Below, one piece after another: positions 6,407-39,915 of a stretch of 64,000 nucleotides of DNA. Source of the DNA: Actinomycetota bacterium (lineage in GTDB: Bacteria > Actinomycetota > Actinomycetes > S36-B12 > UBA5976); NCBI GenBank assembly GCA_026392515.1, contig JAPLBY010000022.1:16869-80868 (forward strand). The letters are read 5' to 3'. Under the pieces are notes generated by a model. The model saw only the letters and a program-made list of their open reading frames with translations, had not been told where the DNA came from and made no database searches. Within the stretch, counting starts at the first letter, position 1; each line of letters opens with the position of its first letter. A program made the position numbers and the translations under genes.

Positions 6407-6441
6407 CTTGAGATTATTGGCCTAACTAGTAACGAAAGAAA

Positions 6442-6642
6442 TTAAGCGTTATCTAGCTGGTGAGTTTCATCTTGAACATCTACTGCAACTGCGCGAAGAC
6501 GAACTTCGTGCTCTTTGAAGTGATGTCCACAGAACTGAAGGGCAGAGCCACCTTCAAGGAACACGCGAACTAGCGCTTGTGCAGCACATCGATCACAACG
6601 ATCAGCAGCAGTAAGTGGAGTACGAGTGATTGTTGAAGTCAT
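6442..6642 (-). CDS. Small conserved actinobacterial protein with CxxC...CxHH (zinc-ribbon-like)
   Basis: 66 aa: ...ADRCDRCAAQALVRV...LQFCGHHFKEHE.... It resembles small conserved actinobacterial proteins near sigA. Function unknown. Confidence 0.6.
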   Translation of the reverse strand: MTSTITRTPLTAADRCDRCAAQALVRVFLEGGSALQFCGHHFKEHEVRLRAVAVDVQDETHQLDNA

Positions 6643-6877
6643 CCTTGCACCAGTTCCTTTGAATCGTTTTACGTGTTCTGACTATTGTGTAATCATTTCA
6701 GAGTCTTCGCTTTCTAACACGCCGAAGACTTGCAACAAGCATCCAGGTTCACTACTGGCGTATTTGCATCTGCAATTAACTAACTAGAAACTCAAATTCA
6801 CAAACGCACTTAAGTTTGCAGGGAAAGCGGCGTGGCAGCCCTGTAAATGTAAGAAAAATGCCTATTCTTAAAGCGTT

Positions 6878-8962
6878 ATGGCAGCCAAAAAGACCGCAGC
6901 AGTTGCGGGTGATTACAACGCATCTGACCTTTCGGTCTTAGAGGGCCTAGACGCGGTCCGTAAGCGTCCGGGAATGTACATCGGTTCCACAGACTCTCGA
7001 GGCTTAATGCACTGCCTGTGGGAGATCATCGATAACTCGGTAGATGAGGCACTTGGCGGCCATTGCACTCGAATTGAAGTCACTTTACATTCTGATCAAA
7101 TCGCGGAAGTTCACGATAACGGCCGCGGTATTCCAGTTGATGTTGAGCCAAAGACCAAGCTCACTGGTGTGGAAGTTGTAATGACCAAACTCCATGCTGG
7201 TGGCAAGTTTGGTGGCGGTTCTTACACCGCATCTGGCGGTTTGCACGGTGTTGGTGCATCGGTTGTTAATGCGCTCTCAAGCCGCATGGATGTCGAAGTA
7301 GATCGCTCTGGTAACACCCACGTTATGAGTTTTAGTCGCGGCGCACCTGGCGTGTTCGTTGGCAAGGATGAAACTGGCAAGTTCTCCAAACAAGGTGGCC
7401 TTAAGAAAGCTGGCAAGCCAGCAAAGAAGACTGCAACCGGAACTCGCATTAAGTTCTGGGCAGACTCGCAAATCTTCACCCCAGATGCTGCCTTTGATTT
7501 AGACGAGATTCATGCTCGCGCCCGCCAAACTTCATTCTTAGTCCCAGGACTAACCATCGTTGTTACCGACAATCGCGTAAAGAGCGATAACACTTCTGAG
7601 TTTGTGCACGTTGGTGGCATTTCCGAGTTTTGTGAATTCTTAACAACTGGCGAAGCCGTCTCACCAGTGATTCGACTTAAGGGTTCTGGCAAGTTCACTG
7701 AAACTGTACCTGTGCTTGATGACCAAGGGCACATGACGCCGCAATCTGTTGAACGCGAACTTGGCGTGGACATCGCATTGCTTTGGAATAACACTTACGA
7801 CACCACGTTGCAGTCATACGTGAATATCATCTCCACACCTAAGGGCGGTACACACGTAACTGGTTTTGATCGCGCCATCGTCAAGGTAGTTAACGATCAA
7901 CTTAAAGCTCAGCGACTGCTAAAAGCTGGTGAAGATTCAGTATCTAAAGAAGATGTGCAAGAGGGATTAACGGCTGTTGTTACGGTGCGCCTGGCCGAAC
8001 CACAGTTCGAAGGTCAGACTAAAGAAATTCTCGGTACGCCAGCAGCAGCCAAAATTGTTAACACTGTTGTTAGCAATGAACTTTCCAACTGGTTCACTAA
8101 CCCGCCGCGAGGCGCAAGGCCGGCAACTCGAATCGTTCTAGACAAAGTTGCCAATGCATCTCGAGCTCGTCTAGCCGCCCGCCACCATCGCGATACTCAA
8201 CGTCGAAAGACTGCGCTGGAGTCCTCAACTTTGCCAGCAAAGCTAAAAGATTGCCGAAGCGAAGATAACGATCGCACCGAATTGTTTATCGTCGAAGGTG
8301 ACAGCGCGCTAGGTACGGCAAAGTCAGCGCGCAATAGTGAGTTCCAAGCACTGCTGCCGATTCGAGGCAAGATCCTTAACGTTCAAAAAGCATCTCTGGC
8401 TGACATGCTCAAGAACAATGAGTGCGCCTCGATCCTGCAGGTAATTGGCGCAGGTTCTGGTCGCTCATTCGATATGGAAGCAGTTCGCTATAACAAGATC
8501 ATCATCTTGGCTGATGCGGACGTGGACGGCGCTCACATTCGCACGCTGTTGCTTACGCTGTTCCAGCGTTACTTAACGCCACTGCTTGAAGCTGGCCGGA
8601 TTTACGCGGCGGTGCCACCACTTCACCGAATCGAAGTAATCGGCGCTGCCAAGAAGCCAGGGGAGATCATCTATACCTATAGCGATGCTGAAATGGCTGC
8701 CACAGTTAAAGATTTAACTAAGCAAGGTCGACGTTGGAAAGAACCGATTCAGCGTTACAAGGGTCTTGGTGAGATGGACGCGGTGCAATTGCGGGAAACC
8801 ACAATGGATCCAGAAAAGCGAACCCTTCGTCGCATTACTGTGAGCGATGCAAAGTCAGCAGAGAATGTTTTTGAATTGCTTATGGGCAGCGAAGTTGCGC
8901 CACGCAAGGACTTCATTATCGATGGCGCTGCAAAACTTGATCGCACCAAGATTGACGTTTAG
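6878..8962 (+). CDS. parE: Type IIA topoisomerase subunit B, topoisomerase IV ParE-like
   Basis: GHKL ATPase motifs (LEGLDAVRKRPGMYIG, EIIDNSVDE, DNGRGIP, GLHGVGASVVNALS). Toprim motifs (ELFIVEGDSA, LADADVDGAHI) and the QRYKGLGEM tail. It is not in a dnaA-gyrBA context; its partner parC-like gene lies 3 kb away. Confidence 0.85.
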   Translation: MAAKKTAAVAGDYNASDLSVLEGLDAVRKRPGMYIGSTDSRGLMHCLWEIIDNSVDEALGGHCTRIEVTLHSDQIAEVHDNGRGIPVDVEPKTKLTGVEVVMTKLHAGGKFGGGSYTASGGLHGVGASVVNALSSRMDVEVDRSGNTHVMSFSRGAPGVFVGKDETGKFSKQGGLKKAGKPAKKTATGTRIKFWADSQIFTPDAAFDLDEIHARARQTSFLVPGLTIVVTDNRVKSDNTSEFVHVGGISEFCEFLTTGEAVSPVIRLKGSGKFTETVPVLDDQGHMTPQSVERELGVDIALLWNNTYDTTLQSYVNIISTPKGGTHVTGFDRAIVKVVNDQLKAQRLLKAGEDSVSKEDVQEGLTAVVTVRLAEPQFEGQTKEILGTPAAAKIVNTVVSNELSNWFTNPPRGARPATRIVLDKVANASRARLAARHHRDTQRRKTALESSTLPAKLKDCRSEDNDRTELFIVEGDSALGTAKSARNSEFQALLPIRGKILNVQKASLADMLKNNECASILQVIGAGSGRSFDMEAVRYNKIIILADADVDGAHIRTLLLTLFQRYLTPLLEAGRIYAAVPPLHRIEVIGAAKKPGEIIYTYSDAEMAATVKDLTKQGRRWKEPIQRYKGLGEMDAVQLRETTMDPEKRTLRRITVSDAKSAENVFELLMGSEVAPRKDFIIDGAAKLDRTKIDV

Positions 8963-16782: not shown

Positions 16783-17079
16783 ATGGCAACAGACTACGAC
16801 GCCCCGAGAAAGACGGACGAAGAGGAAAACGAGGAAAGTCTCGAAAACCTTAAAGCCCAGCATGCCTCGAAGGTCAGTTCAAGCGTTGATGCCGACGAAG
16901 CTGATCTAAATGAGTCGCTAGAACTACCAGGCGCAGATCTTTCTGATGAATCCATCACGGTTATGGTCATCCCGAAGCAAGCTGATGAATTCACTTGCTC
17001 ACGCTGCTTCTTAGTTCACCATCGCAGCACTTTGGCTAAGGAAGTTAAAGGCCAGCCAATTTGTAACGACTGCGCTTAA
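16783..17079 (+). CDS. DUF4193 domain protein
   Basis: Acidic N-terminus MATDYDAPRKTDEEENEE... and C-terminal Cys pairs FTCSRCFLVHHRS...ICNDCA, typical of DUF4193. Confidence 0.8.
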   Translation: MATDYDAPRKTDEEENEESLENLKAQHASKVSSSVDADEADLNESLELPGADLSDESITVMVIPKQADEFTCSRCFLVHHRSTLAKEVKGQPICNDCA

Positions 17080-30197: not shown

Positions 30198-30274
30198 TGG
30201 TGGTCGATACAGGACTTGAACCTGTGACCTCTTCCATGTCAAGGAAGCGCGCTAGCCAACTGCGCCAATCGACC
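30198..30274 (-). tRNA. tRNA-Val (GAC)
   Basis: The reverse complement GGTCGATTGGCGCAGTTGGCTAGCGCGCTTCCTTGACATGGAAGAGGTCACAGGTTCAAGTCCTGTATCGACCACCA folds as a cloverleaf. Anticodon loop TTGACAT; 3' CCA encoded. Confidence 0.95.
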
Positions 30275-30328
30275 GTTGTGGAACGGATGTTTAGTTTTTT
30301 TACTTCGCTTACTCTTTGTGCACTAACG

Positions 30329-30399
30329 AGGTGGAGACGGGATTTGAACCCGTGTACAGGGATTTGCAGTCCCTTGCCTCGCCTCTCGGCCACTCCACC
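30329..30399 (-). tRNA. tRNA-Cys (GCA)
   Basis: Reverse complement GGTGGAGTGGCCGAGAGGCGAGGCAAGGGACTGCAAATCCCTGTACACGGGTTCAAATCCCGTCTCCACCT. Anticodon loop CTGCAAA; CCA not encoded. Confidence 0.93.
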
Positions 30400-30425
30400 G
30401 GGGTCGCCCAATGTGAGCTCTTCCG

Positions 30426-30497
30426 AGCGGATGACGGGATTCGAACCCGCGACCCTCACCTTGGCAAGGTGATGCTCTACCACTGAGCCACATCCGC
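30426..30497 (-). tRNA. tRNA-Gly (GCC)
   Basis: Reverse complement GCGGATGTGGCTCAGTGGTAGAGCATCACCTTGCCAAGGTGAGGGTCGCGGGTTCGAATCCCGTCATCCGCT. Anticodon loop TTGCCAA; CCA not encoded. Confidence 0.95.
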
Positions 30498-33101: not shown

Positions 33102-35108
33102 GTGCCACAAGTTCTCGTAGGACCCGATCGAATCTCAACTGAGATCGATGCTGGCGCCTGCGCTTACGACGTCGTAGGGGATAAGGCCCGCCAAGTTGTA
33201 GTGGCCCGCGTCAATGGTGAAATCGTTGATTTAAGTCACCCGCTTGCAGATGGCGATGCCGTTGAACCAATCCTGATTAGTGATCCTGAAGGACTTTCGG
33301 TTCTGCGGCACAGTGTCGCACACATCGTGGCGCAGGCTACCCAAGCGATCTTTGATGACGTCAAACTCGGAATTGGTCCGCCAATTAAAGATGGCTTCTT
33401 TTACGACTTTGGCACGACCCGAACTTTCACGCCCGATGATCTAGCGACGATCGAAAAGAAGTGTGTTGAGATTATCAACTCAGGACAAAAATTCTCACGT
33501 CGCGTAACTAATCGCGAAGCTGCGCGTTCCGAATTAAGTAATGAACCTTTCAAGATTCGTTTGTTAGGTGCTGACGAAGATGCAACTGTTATGTCTGAGG
33601 ATGTAATGGAAGTCGGCGGCGGCGAACTAACGATTTATGACAACATCGATCTTCGCAGTGGTGAACTTCGTTGGTGCGATTTATGTCGTGGTCCACACGT
33701 ACCCGACACTCGTTACATTGATGCTCGCGCCATCAAGTTAATGCGTACTTCAGCTGCTTATTGGCTGGGCGATCAAAAGAACGAATCGATGCAGCGAGTT
33801 TATGGAACGGCTTTGCCAACTAAAGATGGCTTAAAGCAGTACTTGAACATGTTGGAAGAAGCTGAGAAGCGCGATCATCGTCGACTTGGTGTTGATTTAG
33901 ATCTCTTCTCATTCCCAGACGAAATCGGTTCCGGCCTTGCAGTATTCCATCCCAAGGGTGGAGTCATCCGCCGACAAATGGAAGATTACTCGCGCATCCG
34001 TCACGAAAATGCTGGCTATCAATTTGTGTACACACCGCACATTACAAAGGGTGCATTGTTTGAGCAGTCAGGTCACTTGGATTGGTATCGCGAAGGAATG
34101 TTCCCAGCGATGCATCTTGATGAAGAGTTGCATGAAGATGGCACAGTTAAGCGCCAAGGTCAGGATTACTACCTAAAGCCAATGAACTGCCCATTCCACA
34201 ACTTGATTTACAAGTCACGTGGTCGTTCTTATCGCGAGTTGCCGTTACGTCTCTTTGAATTTGGATCGGTTTATCGTTACGAACGTTCCGGTGTTATCCA
34301 TGGCTTAACTCGAGTTCGCGGTATGACGCAAGATGATGCTCATATTTATTGCACCCCAGAACAAATGGGTGGGGAATTGCAAAACCTATTAGGTTTCGTA
34401 TTGGACCTGTTGCGCGATTACGGTCTGGATGATTTCTATCTAGAGCTTTCAACTCGCAATCCCGAGAAATCTATTGGAACTGAAGCTGAGTGGGAGCAGG
34501 CAACTGCAGCACTTGCTGAAGCAGCACAAAAGTCTGGATTAGAACTAGTTCCAGATCCAGGCGGCGCTGCTTTCTATGGTCCAAAAATCTCTGTACAAGC
34601 TCGCGATGCAATTGGTCGCACCTGGCAGATGTCCACAATCCAGGTGGACTTCCAGTTGCCACAGCGATTCGAATTGGAATACCAGGCATCGGACGGCACT
34701 CGCAGTCGCCCAATCATGATCCACCGTGCATTGTTCGGTTCAATCGAACGCTTCTTTGGAGTTTTGCTGGAGCATTACGCCGGCGCATTCCCACCATGGC
34801 TAGCTCCAGTGCAAGTAGTTGGCATTCCAATTGCCGGAGCGCATGTTGATTACTTGGAAGATGTTGCTACGCAACTTCGAGCTAAAGGTATTCGGGTTGA
34901 AGTAGATGGCTCAGACGAACGGATGCAAAAGAAGATCCGAACCGCACAAACTCAAAAAGTTCCGTTCATGCTGATTGCCGGAGACGAAGATATTGCTGCT
35001 GGCGCCGTTTCTTTCCGATATCGTGACGGCACGCAAGAGAACGCTGTGCCGGTAGCCGATGCGATTAACAAGATCGCCGAGATTGTCACCTCGCGCGTTC
35101 AAATCTGA
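33102..35108 (+). CDS. thrS: Threonine--tRNA ligase
   Basis: GTG start with AAGGA upstream. TGS domain, class II motifs ([34 protein letters not shown]) and an anticodon-binding domain. Confidence 0.97.
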
Positions 35109-35115
35109 GATTTAA

Positions 35116-35634
35116 ATGTCAACTGATCCTCGTGGCCCGCATGCTTGGGATCGACTATGGGCGCCGCATCGCAAAGAATATTTAGCAGATGAGGCTGGAA
35201 ATTTCGATGCTGATTCTTGTCCATTTTGTATTGCTCAAGGAGTTTCGGATTCTGAAGGCTTAGTTGTGGTTCGGCGCAGTGCGACATTTGTTGTCATGAA
35301 TAAGTATCCGTACAACAGTGGACACTTACTGGTTTGCACTAATCGACATGTCCCGCTTTATGACGAACTCACACCCGAAGAAGTAATTCAAATCGGTGAA
35401 CTCACTGCGCAGGCTATGCGAACACTACGAACCGTTGCTAACGCTGCTGGATTCAACATTGGATTGAATCAAGGCAATGTGGCGGGTGCAGGAGTGGCAG
35501 ACCACATTCATCAGCACATCGTGCCGCGTTGGGCTGGCGACATAAACTTCATGCCAATTGTTGGTGGCACAAAAGTATTGCCGGAATTAATTGAACAGAC
35601 CCGGTTGCTGTTATCAGAAAGTTGGAGCGACTAA
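35116..35634 (+). CDS. HIT-family nucleotide hydrolase/phosphorylase (Rv2613c-like)
   Basis: Histidine triad HIHQHIVPRW and an N-terminal CPFC motif. Confidence 0.85.
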   Translation: MSTDPRGPHAWDRLWAPHRKEYLADEAGNFDADSCPFCIAQGVSDSEGLVVVRRSATFVVMNKYPYNSGHLLVCTNRHVPLYDELTPEEVIQIGELTAQAMRTLRTVANAAGFNIGLNQGNVAGAGVADHIHQHIVPRWAGDINFMPIVGGTKVLPELIEQTRLLLSESWSD

Positions 35635-36648
35635 TACTGCGGTTGAGTCTTCGGTTGCAATAGAAGAGCCGGGCGTTAATCCACTGGTAAGTGTTACAAC
35701 TTGATTAGATTCAACAATCTTTAATTGCTTAACGGTACCAGAAACCTTTTCAAAGAGATCCAAGTTTTCATTCGGCCCCCACATGCGAGCTAAATCTTCA
35801 GTGATTGATATTCCTACACGGTCGGTTGCTTCATAGGCATCGCAGGAAACCTCGGCCAAGTTAAGTACTGGGACCCAAACCGGTTGCAGAATCGACATCC
35901 AATTGCTGAAAGTATTAACGCCAACCCCATCGTCAATCGGAGTTATTGTGACTACGTCTGGATGTAACCAGGCTGCTTCAAGTTTTGTAACGCTAATTGG
36001 CAAACCGGAAGTGTGGTTCTCCAGAGTTAAATCATCCAGGCCAAGGTAAGCCAGTTGATCGAACAAATCCTCGCGAGCAGAACTGGTGATTGCAATGTGT
36101 TCTGGGTCAGCAGCCTTGGTAATCCAATTAGCATCAACTAAGGCATGGATTTCGCTGGTGAGAATGTCATAGACGCCGGTTAACGAAAGTTCATCATCCG
36201 AATCGATAGGCAAGTAGCGAACTAGTAGGTCTGGCTCTAGAACTCGGCTAGCGATGGCGCACAATTCATCAAAGTCAGCGCGACCGTTTACGACATTGAA
36301 CGCCAAAATGTGTCGGGGTAACGTCGCATCGCGCGCACCTGACCAGAATTCAACAATTTTTGGATCTACTCCAGCGGCGCCATCTAACGACGCAACAAAG
36401 GCATCGCAGGAATCCAGAATTCTATGGTCGGCTTGGGATGGTCGATGCACGATTACAACCACATTTGGAAGTTTTTCGAATGTGGCAAAAGGTGAGGTGT
36501 CGCTTACAGGCCGTGCCCCCATGTTGGCGTAAACCTGTGCCAGGTCCGATGTTTCAGAGGTGATTACATAGATCAATACGTGCGGGTGCCCTGAGTGCAC
36601 ATCGGAACTAGGTAACATCGTCATATCCCTACGAATAGTAGCGGCCAT
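35614..36648 (-). CDS. EF-G-like pseudo-GTPase (G, G' and domain II only; nucleotide-binding motifs lost)
   Basis: By-eye alignment to the EF-G G domain. VVVIVHRPSQADH...SLDGAAGVDPKIVEFWSGARDATLPRHILAFNVVNGRADF...YLPI compares with [12 protein letters not shown]...VLDGA..VFD...GVEPQSE.VWRQA.KY.VPRI.F.NKMD..GADF...LPIG. The G1/G3/G4 motifs are replaced by VITSETSD, HRPSQ and NVVN. The start could be ATG 36648, 36624 or 36618. Confidence 0.65.
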   Translation of the reverse strand: MAATIRRDMTMLPSSDVHSGHPHVLIYVITSETSDLAQVYANMGARPVSDTSPFATFEKLPNVVVIVHRPSQADHRILDSCDAFVASLDGAAGVDPKIVEFWSGARDATLPRHILAFNVVNGRADFDELCAIASRVLEPDLLVRYLPIDSDDELSLTGVYDILTSEIHALVDANWITKAADPEHIAITSSAREDLFDQLAYLGLDDLTLENHTSGLPISVTKLEAAWLHPDVVTITPIDDGVGVNTFSNWMSILQPVWVPVLNLAEVSCDAYEATDRVGISITEDLARMWGPNENLDLFEKVSGTVKQLKIVESNQVVTLTSGLTPGSSIATEDSTAVLVAPTF

Positions 36649-37284
36649 TTGGCAGTAGAGGAATTTATCGTGCTTGATAACGCAAACGCGCGTCGTTCAG
36701 CCGCTCGATTTATTGACCCTGTTGCCAGGCTTATGTTGCGACTGAAGGTAACCCCAGATGGAATTACCTGGTTTGGTTGCGGCGCAACAATTTTCATTTC
36801 AGTGGTTTTTTTGGCACAAGGCAATTTCCTGATCGGTGCAATCTTGTTTGGCGCTTTTGGTTTGATTGACCTGCTAGATGGAACTATGGCGCGCATGCTT
36901 GGCACTGCTGGGCCTTGGGGCGCATTTTTAGACTCGACTTTGGATCGAATATCGGACGCCGCAGTTATCTGTGCATTGATCTACTTCTATGTCAACGCCG
37001 ATAGCAGCAACAGCCAACTAGCCGTGATCGCTGGAATTGTGTCATTGGTTATGAGTTTGATGACTTCATATGCTCGTGCCAAAGCTGAGTCACTAGATGC
37101 CAAGTGCACAGTAGGAATTGCAGAGCGGGCCGAACGCAACTTATTGATTTGGATTTCGCTACTTGTCTCAGCTTTAGTAACCGATGTAATGCCATATGCT
37201 TTAGCAGCACTTGCGGTACTTTCAACGATTACCGTAATTCAACGCATTTTGTTCGTACGAAAACAACTGGTGATAAAAGCGTGA
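36649..37284 (+). CDS. pgsA: CDP-alcohol phosphatidyltransferase (phosphatidylinositol-phosphate synthase PgsA1-like)
   Basis: Motif DLLDGTMARMLGTAGPWGAFLDSTLDRISD (D-G-x2-A-R...D-x3-D). TTG 36649 is the longest start; GTG 36670 is possible. Confidence 0.85.
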   Translation: MAVEEFIVLDNANARRSAARFIDPVARLMLRLKVTPDGITWFGCGATIFISVVFLAQGNFLIGAILFGAFGLIDLLDGTMARMLGTAGPWGAFLDSTLDRISDAAVICALIYFYVNADSSNSQLAVIAGIVSLVMSLMTSYARAKAESLDAKCTVGIAERAERNLLIWISLLVSALVTDVMPYALAALAVLSTITVIQRILFVRKQLVIKA

Positions 37285-38189
37285 AATCGCTACTTGTTGA
37301 TTTTGGGTTTTGGCTTGGCTGGAATGCGCTTTGGATTATGCCAACTCGCTGGGCTTACTATCTTTTCGGTAAAGCAGCTCAGATTGTTTGGCGCAGAGAA
37401 CTTAACGCGATCAAGCAACTCGAATTGAATTTGGCGCGAGTACTTGGATGCGTAGTTAGCGATCCAAGAATTCGACCGCTTAGCTTAATAACCATTCAAA
37501 GTTATATGCGCTATTACTGTGAAACTTTTATGTTGCCTAGGTGGTCAGATGAGCAATTGCTTGGTCGTGTCCGTGCCGAAAATTCCGAAGTTGTTCTTGA
37601 CGCGCTGAAATCCGGCGGCGCGGTTTTAACGCTGCCACATTTAGCAAACTGGGATTGGGCTGGCGCTTGGGCTGCGCGCTATTTCGGATCCTTGTGCACG
37701 GTTGCCGAACGCCTGCGTCCTGAGGGCGTATTCCAAAAGTTTCTTAAAGCACGTGAATCTCGCGGTATAACTCTGATGCCGTTGTCAGGTGAGGGCGGAA
37801 CGTACGAGTTCTTGCGGGAACACGTGAATCAAGGTCGACTGGTTGCGCTGCTAGGTGATCGCGATGTTGCCAAGAGTGGAATGAGTAACGAATTCTTTGG
37901 TCATCGCGCCCCATTACCAATTGGCGCGGCATTATTGGCGCTAGATACCGGCCGACCGCTCTTTACTTGTGCACCTTGGTATGACGGCGAAAATCTAGTT
38001 ATCACGTTTGATGATGAAGTGGTTTTTGATCGAAGTCCGGTACAGGGTCGAGATCGCTTGCGACGTGCTCAAGAGATTACAAAACTTGTGGCAGCAAATT
38101 TCGAGAAACATATCTCGGCACATCCAGATAATTGGCACCAACTGCAGCCAGTGTGGCCAGACTTAGTTTTCCAAGAGGCAACCTCATGA
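37281..38189 (+). CDS. Phosphatidylinositol mannoside acyltransferase (LpxL/HtrB-type, Rv2611c-like)
   Basis: HX4D motif HLANWD. GTG 37281 overlaps the pgsA stop (GTGA). The ORF-track extension to 37104 overlaps pgsA and is rejected. Confidence 0.8.
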   Translation: MKSLLVDFGFWLGWNALWIMPTRWAYYLFGKAAQIVWRRELNAIKQLELNLARVLGCVVSDPRIRPLSLITIQSYMRYYCETFMLPRWSDEQLLGRVRAENSEVVLDALKSGGAVLTLPHLANWDWAGAWAARYFGSLCTVAERLRPEGVFQKFLKARESRGITLMPLSGEGGTYEFLREHVNQGRLVALLGDRDVAKSGMSNEFFGHRAPLPIGAALLALDTGRPLFTCAPWYDGENLVITFDDEVVFDRSPVQGRDRLRRAQEITKLVAANFEKHISAHPDNWHQLQPVWPDLVFQEATS

Positions 38190-39373
38190 GGATTGGCATT
38201 GTTTGTCCATACTCATGGGACATTCCGGGCGGCGTAAGTGCACACGTGGCAGATCTAGCTGAGGCGCTGATTCGAATGGGTCATCACGTAAGCGTGCTGG
38301 CACCAGCTGAATTCGATGAACTGTTGCCGAATTACGTAGTTTCAACTGGAAAGCCAAGAGCGGTTAAGTACAACGGTTCGGTAGCGCGATTGAGTTTTGG
38401 TCCGATCGCTGCCCGAAAAGTTTCGAAGTGGATTGAGGAGGGGGAGTTTGATGTCCTGCATGTGCATGAACCACTTGCCCCGAGTCTTTCGGTCTTAGCT
38501 TGTTGGGCTGCAAAAGGTCCGATTGTGGCAACTTGGCACTCCTCGATGGACAAGTCGCGCATGATGCTTACGCTTTCAAAGCTGGCGCAGACCGCAATGG
38601 AGAAAGTGTCAGCTCGAATTGCAGTTAGTGAAGCAGCGCGAACCACATTGATTAAGCATGTTGGTGGCGACGCAGTAGTGATTCCAAACGGCGTTGACGT
38701 TTCAGCGTTCACAAACGCCAAACCAATGTTTGGTTGGCCCGGCGCGAATCAATCCATCGTTTTCTTGGGCAGAGGTGACGAGCCACGTAAAGGTTTGCAG
38801 GTACTCGTAGATGCTTATCCTGAAATTCGACGACAGCATCCAAATGTTCGATTGCTTATCGCCGGTCCAGGCGAGCCAGCCGACACTCTAAAGAATCTCT
38901 CTCGAGAGGATCGAGCAAGTGTGACCGTGCTTGGCATGGTCGCGCCACAAGATAAAGCAAGCGTGCTTGCATCCGGAACTGTGTACGTCGCACCCAATAC
39001 TGGGGGCGAATCCTTTGGCATTGTGTTGTTAGAGGCAATGGCAAGCGGGACACCCGTAATTGCTAGTGACTTAGAAGCTTTTGAACGTGTGTTAGATCAT
39101 GGCAAGGCTGGCATCACTTTCGAAAACGAAAATTCATCCGACTTAGCAAAAGTAGTTTCTGGTTTGCTGTCGGATCCAAACCAATGCGCAGAACTTTCTG
39201 CTCAAGGAAAGTTGCGAGCAGCGGAATTTGATTGGTCTGTAGTTGCCGAACGGATCGTGGATGTCTACGAGTCAATCAGAGTGCCAGGTGTGAAAGTTGA
39301 ACCAGACTTAACTGGCCAAATGATTGGTCGACTCGGTCGTGGCAGAATAACCCCAGAGATGCGGAGTGATTAA
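38186..39373 (+). CDS. pimA: GT4 glycosyltransferase, phosphatidyl-myo-inositol mannosyltransferase PimA-like
   Basis: Contains MRIGIVCPYSWDIPGGV and the EX7E motif GESFGIVLLEAMASGTPVIAS. The ATG overlaps the previous stop (ATGA). Confidence 0.85.
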   Translation: MRIGIVCPYSWDIPGGVSAHVADLAEALIRMGHHVSVLAPAEFDELLPNYVVSTGKPRAVKYNGSVARLSFGPIAARKVSKWIEEGEFDVLHVHEPLAPSLSVLACWAAKGPIVATWHSSMDKSRMMLTLSKLAQTAMEKVSARIAVSEAARTTLIKHVGGDAVVIPNGVDVSAFTNAKPMFGWPGANQSIVFLGRGDEPRKGLQVLVDAYPEIRRQHPNVRLLIAGPGEPADTLKNLSREDRASVTVLGMVAPQDKASVLASGTVYVAPNTGGESFGIVLLEAMASGTPVIASDLEAFERVLDHGKAGITFENENSSDLAKVVSGLLSDPNQCAELSAQGKLRAAEFDWSVVAERIVDVYESIRVPGVKVEPDLTGQMIGRLGRGRITPEMRSD

Positions 39374-39915
39374 TGAATAGTCAATCGATCATCCTTATTG
39401 TGGCCATTGCTTTTGCAGTTTGGTATTTGTCGCATCAAGCCGGCCGACTTGATCGTCTGCATCATCGAATTGAAGTAACTGAACTTGCGCTGCACGGCCA
39501 ACTCGTAAGACGTGGGGGAATTGTTGCTGAGTTAGCAGCCGTGCCTGGAATCGATCCAGCGCTGTCGGTGCTTTGGGGACAGGCTGCGCACGAAGCACTA
39601 ATTCTGCAAGAGGTCTCATCGCCGGAACGAACTCAGGTTGAAGACGAGTTAACGAGTATTTTAGTTATGACTTTGGACGAAGCCGAGGAAGTCAACGAAA
39701 TCCGAAGCAATCAGCATGCCTCAGCTTTGCTCGATGAGTTGGCCCAAGTATGCGACCGTATCCAAATGAGCCAGCAATTCCATACGGATGCAGTACGTGA
39801 TTGCCTTGAGATCCGTGAGCAATTTTTGGTTAGGTTCTTCCGTTTGGCTGGCAGGGCTAAACCGCCTGTCCCAGTCGATCTGGATGTCCAGATTCCGCCG
39901 GCCTTAGTCGACTAG
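39373..39915 (+). CDS. Single-TM hypothetical protein, distantly LemA-like
   Basis: N-terminal TM helix IILIVAIAFAVWYL is followed by GRLDRLHHRIEVTELALHGQLVRRGGIVAELA, reminiscent of LemA YNRLVxLRNxVxxAWAQIDVQLKRRxDLIPNLV. The ATG overlaps the pimA stop (TAATG). Confidence 0.55.
   Translation: MNSQSIILIVAIAFAVWYLSHQAGRLDRLHHRIEVTELALHGQLVRRGGIVAELAAVPGIDPALSVLWGQAAHEALILQEVSSPERTQVEDELTSILVMTLDEAEEVNEIRSNQHASALLDELAQVCDRIQMSQQFHTDAVRDCLEIREQFLVRFFRLAGRAKPPVPVDLDVQIPPALVD

Follow-up and report, generated by a model that had tools for sequence, protein, structure and literature searches.

A putative pseudo-GTPase descended from actinobacterial elongation factor G2 and apparently maintained in Nanopelagicales and related Actinomycetota

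What becomes of an elongation factor G (EF-G) that has lost its GTPase motifs and its last three domains, and does such a gene still make a protein under selection? The question is raised by a locus in a freshwater Actinomycetota bacterium assigned to Candidatus Nanopelagicales (acI) (assembly GCA_026392515.1, contig JAPLBY010000022.1). The window analysed here is the whole stretch of 64,000 nucleotides from position 16,869 to 80,868 of that contig; local GC content is ~48%, and the closest public loci belong to metagenome-assembled genomes (MAGs) of Nanopelagicales. Positions 35614-36648 of the window hold, on the minus strand, an intact open reading frame (ORF) whose longest form encodes 344 aa, referred to below as the short gene. 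It is the sole minus-strand gene between 30.5 and 50.1 kb. An earlier sequence-only reading of the window had correctly described this ORF, its lone reverse orientation and its 21-bp overlap with the 3′ end of a HIT-family gene. It had taken the product for a maintained but GTPase-dead remnant of fusA that interrupts an otherwise contiguous thrS-HIT-pgsA block. The analysis summarized here retains the first half of that description and revises the second. The product appears to be a pseudoGTPase, in that the predicted G-domain fold is kept, the G motifs are lost and the aligned coding sequences carry the mark of purifying selection. Its parent and the history of its chromosomal slot differ from those first proposed.

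The relationship to EF-G is visible only through NCBIfam, profile searches and hhalign. Pfam, applied to the query alone, gives no match even at E=10, and the PDB EF-G chains that head the phmmer results are weak matches; M. smegmatis EF-G2 is found by phmmer at E=0.041. The best NCBIfam match is EF-G2 (NF009377, E=2.4e-8, residues 82-222), with a score of 32.8 bits against an equivalog cut-off of 890 and coverage limited to profile positions 103-241. A search of 1.84 billion representative proteins with a 16-member family profile retrieved ~45 short relatives (representatives at 50% identity), followed by longer proteins (500-700 aa) with E-values down to 3.6e-13. These long proteins carry GTP_EFTU, EF-G_D2, EFG_III, EFG_IV and EFG_C; two of them, P0163 and P0164, are matched at E ~4e-13, and P0163 scores 1086.8 against the same EF-G2 equivalog cut-off. 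Alignment of the family profile with ten long EF-G2s by hhalign has a probability of 98.8% (E=5.1e-17; query 77-252, EF-G2 101-281), and full-length EF-G2s recover the window by tblastn at E=1e-13 to 1.6e-18. Chance cannot account for a similarity to EF-G of this strength. The short form also has the EF-G2 family-specific motifs RADFDE, LP and ADPEH. The parent is most simply read as actinobacterial EF-G2, a member of the EFG II subfamily, and not as fusA, which the sequence-only reading had assumed; the best NCBIfam match and the synteny described below both point to the EF-G2 paralogue. By descent, the protein would thus belong to the actinobacterial EF-G2 lineage.

Multiple alignment with full-length EF-G2s reveals that the elements of the nucleotide site are replaced or gone. 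G1 has changed from GPSSAGKT to TSETSDLA (residues 30-37, 36538-36561), G3 from DSPG to HRPS (residues 68-71, 36436-36447) and G4 from TKID to NVVN (residues 118-121, 36286-36297). The G5 region is altered as well, and switch I, which spans ~30 residues in full-length EF-G2, is deleted. The sequence-only reading was right that G1, G3 and G4 are replaced, but its register for G1 was off by two residues. The G1 Lys/Thr, G3 Asp/Gly and G4 Lys/Asp are missing from every short-clade member, as is switch I. An intact P-loop version, which that reading would have counted against itself had a sequencing error or an alternative frame revealed one, was found neither in the six frames of 35400-36900, which hold no P-loop, DxPG or [NT]KxD motif, nor among the short-clade representatives, none of which has a P-loop. 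At the other end, the C-terminal LVAPTF aligns with P-x-P at about residue 421 of P0163, the domain II/III junction. Judged from this alignment, the protein stops where domain II would give way to domain III and has none of domains III-V, as had been recognized earlier together with the shortened switch I; no remnant of domains III-V was found anywhere in the window. Loss of G1, G3, G4 and switch I excludes canonical GTPase activity, and loss of domains III-V excludes translocation and recycling. Nucleotide binding has quite probably been lost as well, given the residues that are missing. The protein falls short of the equivalog score and has neither the five domains nor the G motifs of the family, and annotation as EF-G2 or as a GTPase is therefore unwarranted.

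The predicted fold corroborates this homology. An AlphaFold2 (AF2) model built from a 147-sequence alignment has a predicted local distance difference test (pLDDT) score of 93.6 and a predicted template modelling score of 0.90; a shallow 16-sequence alignment gave an unusable pLDDT of 48. The top Foldseek matches in the PDB are all EF-G (best E=2.8e-18). Crystallised N-terminal fragments of EF-G (1-405) match the whole query with template modelling scores of 0.62-0.67, and M. smegmatis EF-G2 (9k0z_7) is matched at E=4e-14. The model thus predicts a G domain into which G′ is inserted, with the beta-barrel of domain II after it. The relationship to G, G′ and domain II proposed from the sequence alone is therefore borne out, the G domain by significant matches and domain II by the coverage of the predicted fold. 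However, genuine EF-G2 sequences were part of the AF2 alignment, and the fold match therefore cannot count as evidence separate from the sequence homology.

Selection was assessed on codon-aligned Nanopelagicales loci. None of the 18 contains a stop codon, and their products are 333-334 aa long. Ratios of nonsynonymous to synonymous substitution (dN/dS) were computed pairwise by the Nei-Gojobori method for pairs with dS <1.5; dS is near saturation, and the values are approximate. The ratio is 0.10 for the short gene, compared with 0.019 for thrS, 0.036 for pimA, 0.043 for HIT, 0.048 for pgsA and 0.09 for a PGPGW membrane protein. It is unevenly distributed along the protein. Residues 11-104, the former nucleotide-binding half, have a value of 0.12, and residues 241-344 (domain II) have 0.23. 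Between them, residues 105-240, which comprise the G4 strand, helix D and the whole of G′, have 0.018 and are constrained like thrS. This constraint acts on the protein and not on the DNA, because dS in the core is high (1.3). Overall identity of the short gene is 53-96%, versus 90-98% for thrS. Residues conserved at ≥80% in the deep short clade are W102, P111-R112, D125-F126-x-E128, A131, R135, L146-P147, D181-x-E183-H184 and R192; those common to this clade and the long EF-G2s are W102, PR111-112, DFDE, LP146-147, DPEH and R192. The protein is acidic, with a pI of 4.35 overall and 4.1 for G′. These sequence comparisons indicate that purifying selection maintains the gene in Nanopelagicales and related uncultured Actinomycetota. 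The view that the gene is maintained and not decaying is upheld, and the orthologues show neither the frameshifts nor the dN/dS near 1 expected of a remnant.

The position of the gene bears on its origin. A scan of genome contigs, made with strict peptide patterns on the close family, recovered 20 Nanopelagicales-type loci, and synteny is identical in all 20 species loci. On contigs of distant relatives, the gene keeps the same slot and orientation, divergent from genes for CDP-OH_P_transf, Lip_A_acyltrans and GT4 proteins and usually convergent on HIT-thrS. At three of these loci (L029, L030 and L033), inserted genes part the gene from HIT-thrS, and the adjacency to pgsA stays. The pgsA, acyltransferase and GT4 genes are thus constant neighbours of EF-G2 and its derivatives. 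The slot houses forms of graded length. Full EF-G2s with an intact P-loop have 702 aa (P0163, L021) and 703 aa (P0164, L022). A 520-aa form (P0161, L024-L026) lacks IV but has the G domain, V and part of III, and forms of 400 aa (P0175, L033) and 382 aa (P0165, L023) are shorter still; all three have an intact P-loop. Dead forms of 337-380 aa (P0121, P0129, P0159 and P0166) occupy L027-L032. The short gene is best explained as an EF-G2 descendant because EF-G2 is its closest family, the chromosomal position is the same and the lengths form a 702/520/400/382/334-aa series. It would accordingly be a positional orthologue of full-length actinobacterial EF-G2 and not an insertion. The thrS-HIT-pgsA block is not ancestrally contiguous, contrary to the idea that the short gene interrupts it; in other Actinomycetota the slot is commonly filled by an EF-G2 gene.

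The P-loop-bearing truncations are apparent intermediates in this decay series and seem undescribed. Like the short form, P0165, P0175 and P0161 lie at the same locus, have the G/G′/II core and lack domain IV. Unlike it, they keep GxxGxGK[ST] and DxPG and reach the Pfam GTP_EFTU threshold. All three come from uncultured high-GC Actinomycetota, and the 382-400-aa forms combine an intact P-loop with a degenerate G4 (TNLD, TGVE). Across L021-L033, GC content ranges from 49% to 73% and thrS is 64-92% identical to that of the window, so the truncation series spans diverse Actinomycetota and not streamlined ones alone. In a crude neighbour-joining tree (181 columns, no support values), the window protein falls in a large, all-dead clade of 300-380-aa forms. 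In the same tree, other short or dead forms lie in smaller groups interspersed among long forms, and this scatter suggests, without statistical support, more than one truncation event. Two side observations concern the loci themselves. L021 has an extra 153-aa ORF without a Pfam match (6432-6893) between EF-G2 and HIT that is not present in the window. L017 (CAMBGF010000003.1) is labelled 'MAG: Bifidobacterium breve', but it contains a complete Nanopelagicales-type locus with a thrS 91% identical to that of the window, and the label looks wrong.

The extent of the gene and its flanks can be refined by comparison. In a nucleotide alignment of 15 related loci, ATG 36624 and ATG 36618 are invariant. 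The first ATG of the ORF (M1) is not conserved, being TTG in several loci and TAG in two (L013 and L014). The sequence AGGGA sits 7 nt ahead of ATG 36618, and gene callers mostly give the homologues 334 aa. The invariance of the two internal ATGs, the variability of M1 and the placement of AGGGA make a 334-aa product most likely, and the true start is probably ATG 36618. With the conserved starts, the divergent spacer to pgsA measures 45-51 bp; the zero spacing described in the sequence-only reading is an artefact of the longest ORFs. Within the spacer, a near-invariant element of 28 nt, CCGCTACTATTCGTAGGGATATGwCGATG (36616-36643, minus strand), also present in L003-L018, runs into the real start codon. 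It contains a TAnnnT hexamer (TACTAT/TACGAT) and the AGGGA Shine-Dalgarno-like site, and may represent a core promoter and ribosome-binding site within a spacer shared with pgsA. Consensus scanning around the gene identified no sigma-70-like promoter, and a terminator scan gave only chance-level matches; both scans are uninformative for Actinomycetota. The 5′ third of the short gene (36337-36618) has a median dS of 0.70 versus 1.30 in the middle, which hints at constraint at the nucleotide level, for example an embedded pgsA promoter or operator. At the opposite end, the invariant LVAPTF is encoded within the antiparallel overlap with the end of HIT, and its invariance may come partly from dual coding.

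What the protein does can be proposed from its relatives. The favoured reading, which falls a little short of probable, is that the short gene encodes an EF-G2 remnant of G, G′ and domain II, dead at its GTP site and under selection, that serves as a nucleotide-independent binding module at the ribosomal stalk. EF-Tu and EF-G meet the C-terminal domain of bL12 through two elements, the helix that follows G4 (helix D) and helix A of G′. In the short protein, the acidic face of helix D and G′, its tightest-constrained part, would be presented to the same domain near the GTPase-associated centre. The protein would need no GTP to dock at the stalk or factor-binding site, where it would modulate the access of factors, be it as occupant, decoy or modulator. 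The role reported for mycobacterial EF-G2, 'stress-specific, non-translocating', might thereby persist in a minimal version. Margus et al. describe a conserved acidic patch of G′ that contacts L7/L12 and find the tip of G′ better conserved in EFG II than in EFG I (PMC3150367). The acidic G′ of the short protein fits such a patch. By analogy, a scaffold or ribosome-binding role localised to the helix D and G′ face is plausible, and GTP hydrolysis is already dispensable in the parent EF-G2 family. Binding to the stalk or ribosome, taken by itself, is nevertheless rather doubtful. Unlikely on present grounds, but specific, is the proposal that the short protein is the minimal EF-G2 core, a GTP-independent acidic helix D/G′ module on the bL12 stalk or GTPase-associated centre that would tune factor access in slow-growing streamlined cells. 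If so, the selected function of EF-G2 would reside in G′ and be independent of both GTP hydrolysis and domains III-V. Stepwise losses, repeated across actinobacterial lineages, would then amount to a natural deletion experiment that defines EF-G2 function.

Several points weigh against a role at the stalk. The N-terminal G half and domain II, which correspond to the faces toward the sarcin-ricin loop and the 30S subunit, evolve 6-12x faster than the core. This pattern disfavours full EF-G-like docking between the subunits and makes a non-ribosomal partner possible. The bL12 contact proposed for helix D and G′ is carried over from what is established for EF-Tu and EF-G, and the AF2 alignment held real EF-G2s, which ties the fold match to sequence homology. 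The constant adjacency to pgsA hints instead at phosphatidylinositol (PI) synthesis. The main rival, improbable as it is, accordingly places the protein off the ribosome as a neofunctionalised G′ core that binds a partner tied to its neighbours, either in the synthesis of PI and phosphatidylinositol mannosides (PgsA, the acyltransferase, PimA) or the HIT (Ap4A-type) enzyme. The case for a neighbour-linked role is purely positional. The divergent pgsA adjacency is found in every locus examined, even where HIT-thrS has been displaced, and the narrow spacer with its conserved element makes shared control of the short gene and pgsA probable. The rapid evolution of the ribosome-facing parts fits a non-ribosomal partner too, and two translational GTPases, CysN and Snu114, are known to have moved to roles outside translation (PMC4342817). 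However, full-length EF-G2s with an intact P-loop share the pgsA adjacency, actinomycetotal gene order may simply be inherited, and Pfam and NCBIfam detect no domain or motif for lipid or nucleotide-sugar chemistry in the query. Moreover, mycobacterial EF-G2 relatives bind ribosomes though encoded at another locus (Rv0120c in M. tuberculosis).

The remaining alternatives concern what the truncated protein may have kept. A remodelled pocket might still hold a nucleotide or small ligand, which would make the product a cryptic NTP-binding protein and not a true pseudo-GTPase. Selection on the N-terminal half, at the ratio given above, and the invariance of the replacement residues S31, D35, H68 and S71 within the close family are consistent with this. 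These residues vary across the deeper short clade, however, and the loss of the key G1, G3 and G4 residues and switch I from all its members makes a retained pocket quite improbable. Even less probable is that the gene encodes one half of a split EF-G2, with domains III-V and perhaps a nucleotide-binding partner supplied from elsewhere in the genome and the pieces assembling. Intermediate architectures at the same locus, such as the 520-aa form without domain IV, show that domain content in the family is plastic. Yet the window has no domain III-V remnant, the HIT overlap fixes the C-terminus in all loci, and reassembly could not restore GTPase chemistry to a protein without P-loop, switch I, G3 and G4. 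A decaying, functionless EF-G2 pseudogene would explain the lack of a Pfam match and a faster evolution than that of the neighbouring genes, thrS among them. The probability of this is negligible. The pseudogene reading is excluded because all 18 loci are intact, dN/dS is low overall and lowest in the core, and dS is ~1. The ~45 representatives with deep clade structure and the retention of the gene in streamlined genomes likewise argue against it.

Compared with known systems, the short form stands closest to actinobacterial EF-G2 (NF009377; the Actinobacteria group of EFG II, PMC3150367), with which it shares the locus, the motifs RADFDE, LP and ADPEH, and the G, G′ and II folds. It differs in having 334 aa instead of ~700, in lacking domains III-V, and in the replacement of G1, G3, G4 and G5 and deletion of switch I. 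Already in the EFG II parent, the G domain is diverged and the G2 and G4 motifs are relaxed (PMC3150367); the EF-G2s aligned here have TKID, TNLD or TRLD at G4. M. smegmatis EF-G2 (MSMEG_6535; PDB 9K0Z, 9K10) is homologous, but it has five domains and keeps the nucleotide pocket. Its binding to the ribosome by cryo-EM (Baid & Sengupta, FEBS J 2025) is cited in a preprint whose authors regard mycobacterial EF-G2 as a stress-specific factor (bioRxiv 10.64898/2026.05.25.727771). Ribosome binding is thus a feature of the M. smegmatis protein; the short form is known here from its sequence. SCO1528 is one of the EF-G paralogues of S. coelicolor (PMC7157823, PMC6344877), and SCO1525-1527 form the phosphoinositide cluster of that species (PMC4255298). 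Judged from locus tags alone, SCO1528 lies in the same chromosomal slot as the short gene, and because it adjoins SCO1525-SCO1527, the arrangement also occurs in a model organism.

PseudoGTPases are otherwise familiar from eukaryotes, where CENP-M and the pseudoGTPase domains of p190RhoGAP keep the G-domain fold without its capacity to bind nucleotide. The idea carries over, a fold kept as a binding scaffold, but the branches of the GTPase superfamily are unrelated. Literature searches found no bacterial or translational-GTPase pseudoGTPase and nothing on EF-G in Nanopelagicales, and EFG II forms that are truncated or lack the motifs go unmentioned in surveys of translational GTPases (PMC3150367, PMC4342817). 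Sources that name the short family at all call it 'hypothetical protein'. To judge by these searches, it would be the first pseudo-GTPase on record whose ancestor is a bacterial translational GTPase. EF-G2 (EFG II) is widespread, and in the short form roughly half of it appears to have been lost, along with the GTPase chemistry, whereas helix D and G′ vary as little as an aminoacyl-tRNA synthetase. This pattern of constraint singles out one face, helix D and G′, with the bL12 C-terminal domain as candidate partner, and suggests that the selected function of the EF-G2 paralogue is binding and not catalysis. The family alignment could seed a family model. By common description, Nanopelagicales (acI) rank among the most abundant bacteria of fresh water. 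Coordinates are collected in Table 1.

Table 1. Features of the short gene and its neighbours (window coordinates; residues numbered from M1 of the 344-aa ORF).
Feature	Position	Strand	Description and basis
EF-G2-derived short gene, probable true extent	35614..36618	−	334 aa + stop; start ATG = M11
N-terminal half of predicted G-domain fold	36337..36585	−	residues 22-104; dead G1 and dead G3, switch I deleted; EF-G2 alignment, AF2 strands/helices
Ultra-conserved core	35929..36336	−	residues 105-240; G4 strand with NVVN, helix D with RADFDE, G′; dN/dS, hhalign
G′ subdomain (predicted)	35953-36201	−	~residues 150-232; ADPEH and acidic helix SSAREDLFDQLAYLGLDD
Domain II-like beta-barrel (predicted)	35617..35883	−	residues 256-344; AF2 beta strands 261-340, Foldseek, dN/dS 0.23
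Convergent overlap	35614..35634		21 bp; 3′ end of short gene and 3′ end of HIT; related loci likewise
Divergent spacer	36619..36669		between short-gene start and probable pgsA start; contains conserved element CTACTATTCGTAGGGAT; 15-locus nucleotide alignment
thrS	33102-35108	+	convergent neighbour; Pfam
HIT-family gene	35116-35634	+	convergent neighbour; Pfam
pgsA (CDP-OH_P_transf), acyltransferase (Lip_A_acyltrans), pimA-like GT4	36670..39373	+	divergent; Pfam and synteny L001-L033

The neighbouring genes also have starts that differ from those of their longest ORFs. The longest pgsA ORF opens at TTG 36649. Downstream lie AGAGGAA at 36657-36663 and a conserved GTG at 36670, and the pgsA start is probably this GTG, behind the GAGGA site. 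Taken at their longest, the acyltransferase and pimA ORFs run 181 bp (37104-37284) and 58 bp (38132-38189), respectively, into the genes before them. On related contigs (e.g. L024 and L027), the called acyltransferase and pimA genes overlap by only ~4 bp. The real starts of both genes are thus probably further downstream, with the genes translationally coupled. Elsewhere in the window, a 694-aa ORF (6878-8962) was considered as a second EF-G and rejected, being GyrB/ParE-like. Rfam and tRNA scans of the window gave only three tRNAs, at 30.2-30.5 kb. They form a minus-strand cluster (30198-30497) of tRNA-Val(GAC), tRNA-Cys(GCA) and tRNA-Gly(GCC) immediately upstream of the co-directional block. 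Beyond pimA, a 180-aa ORF (39373-39915) with a sub-threshold LemA match (E=4e-5) is conserved between pimA and pdxS in every related locus, high-GC ones included.

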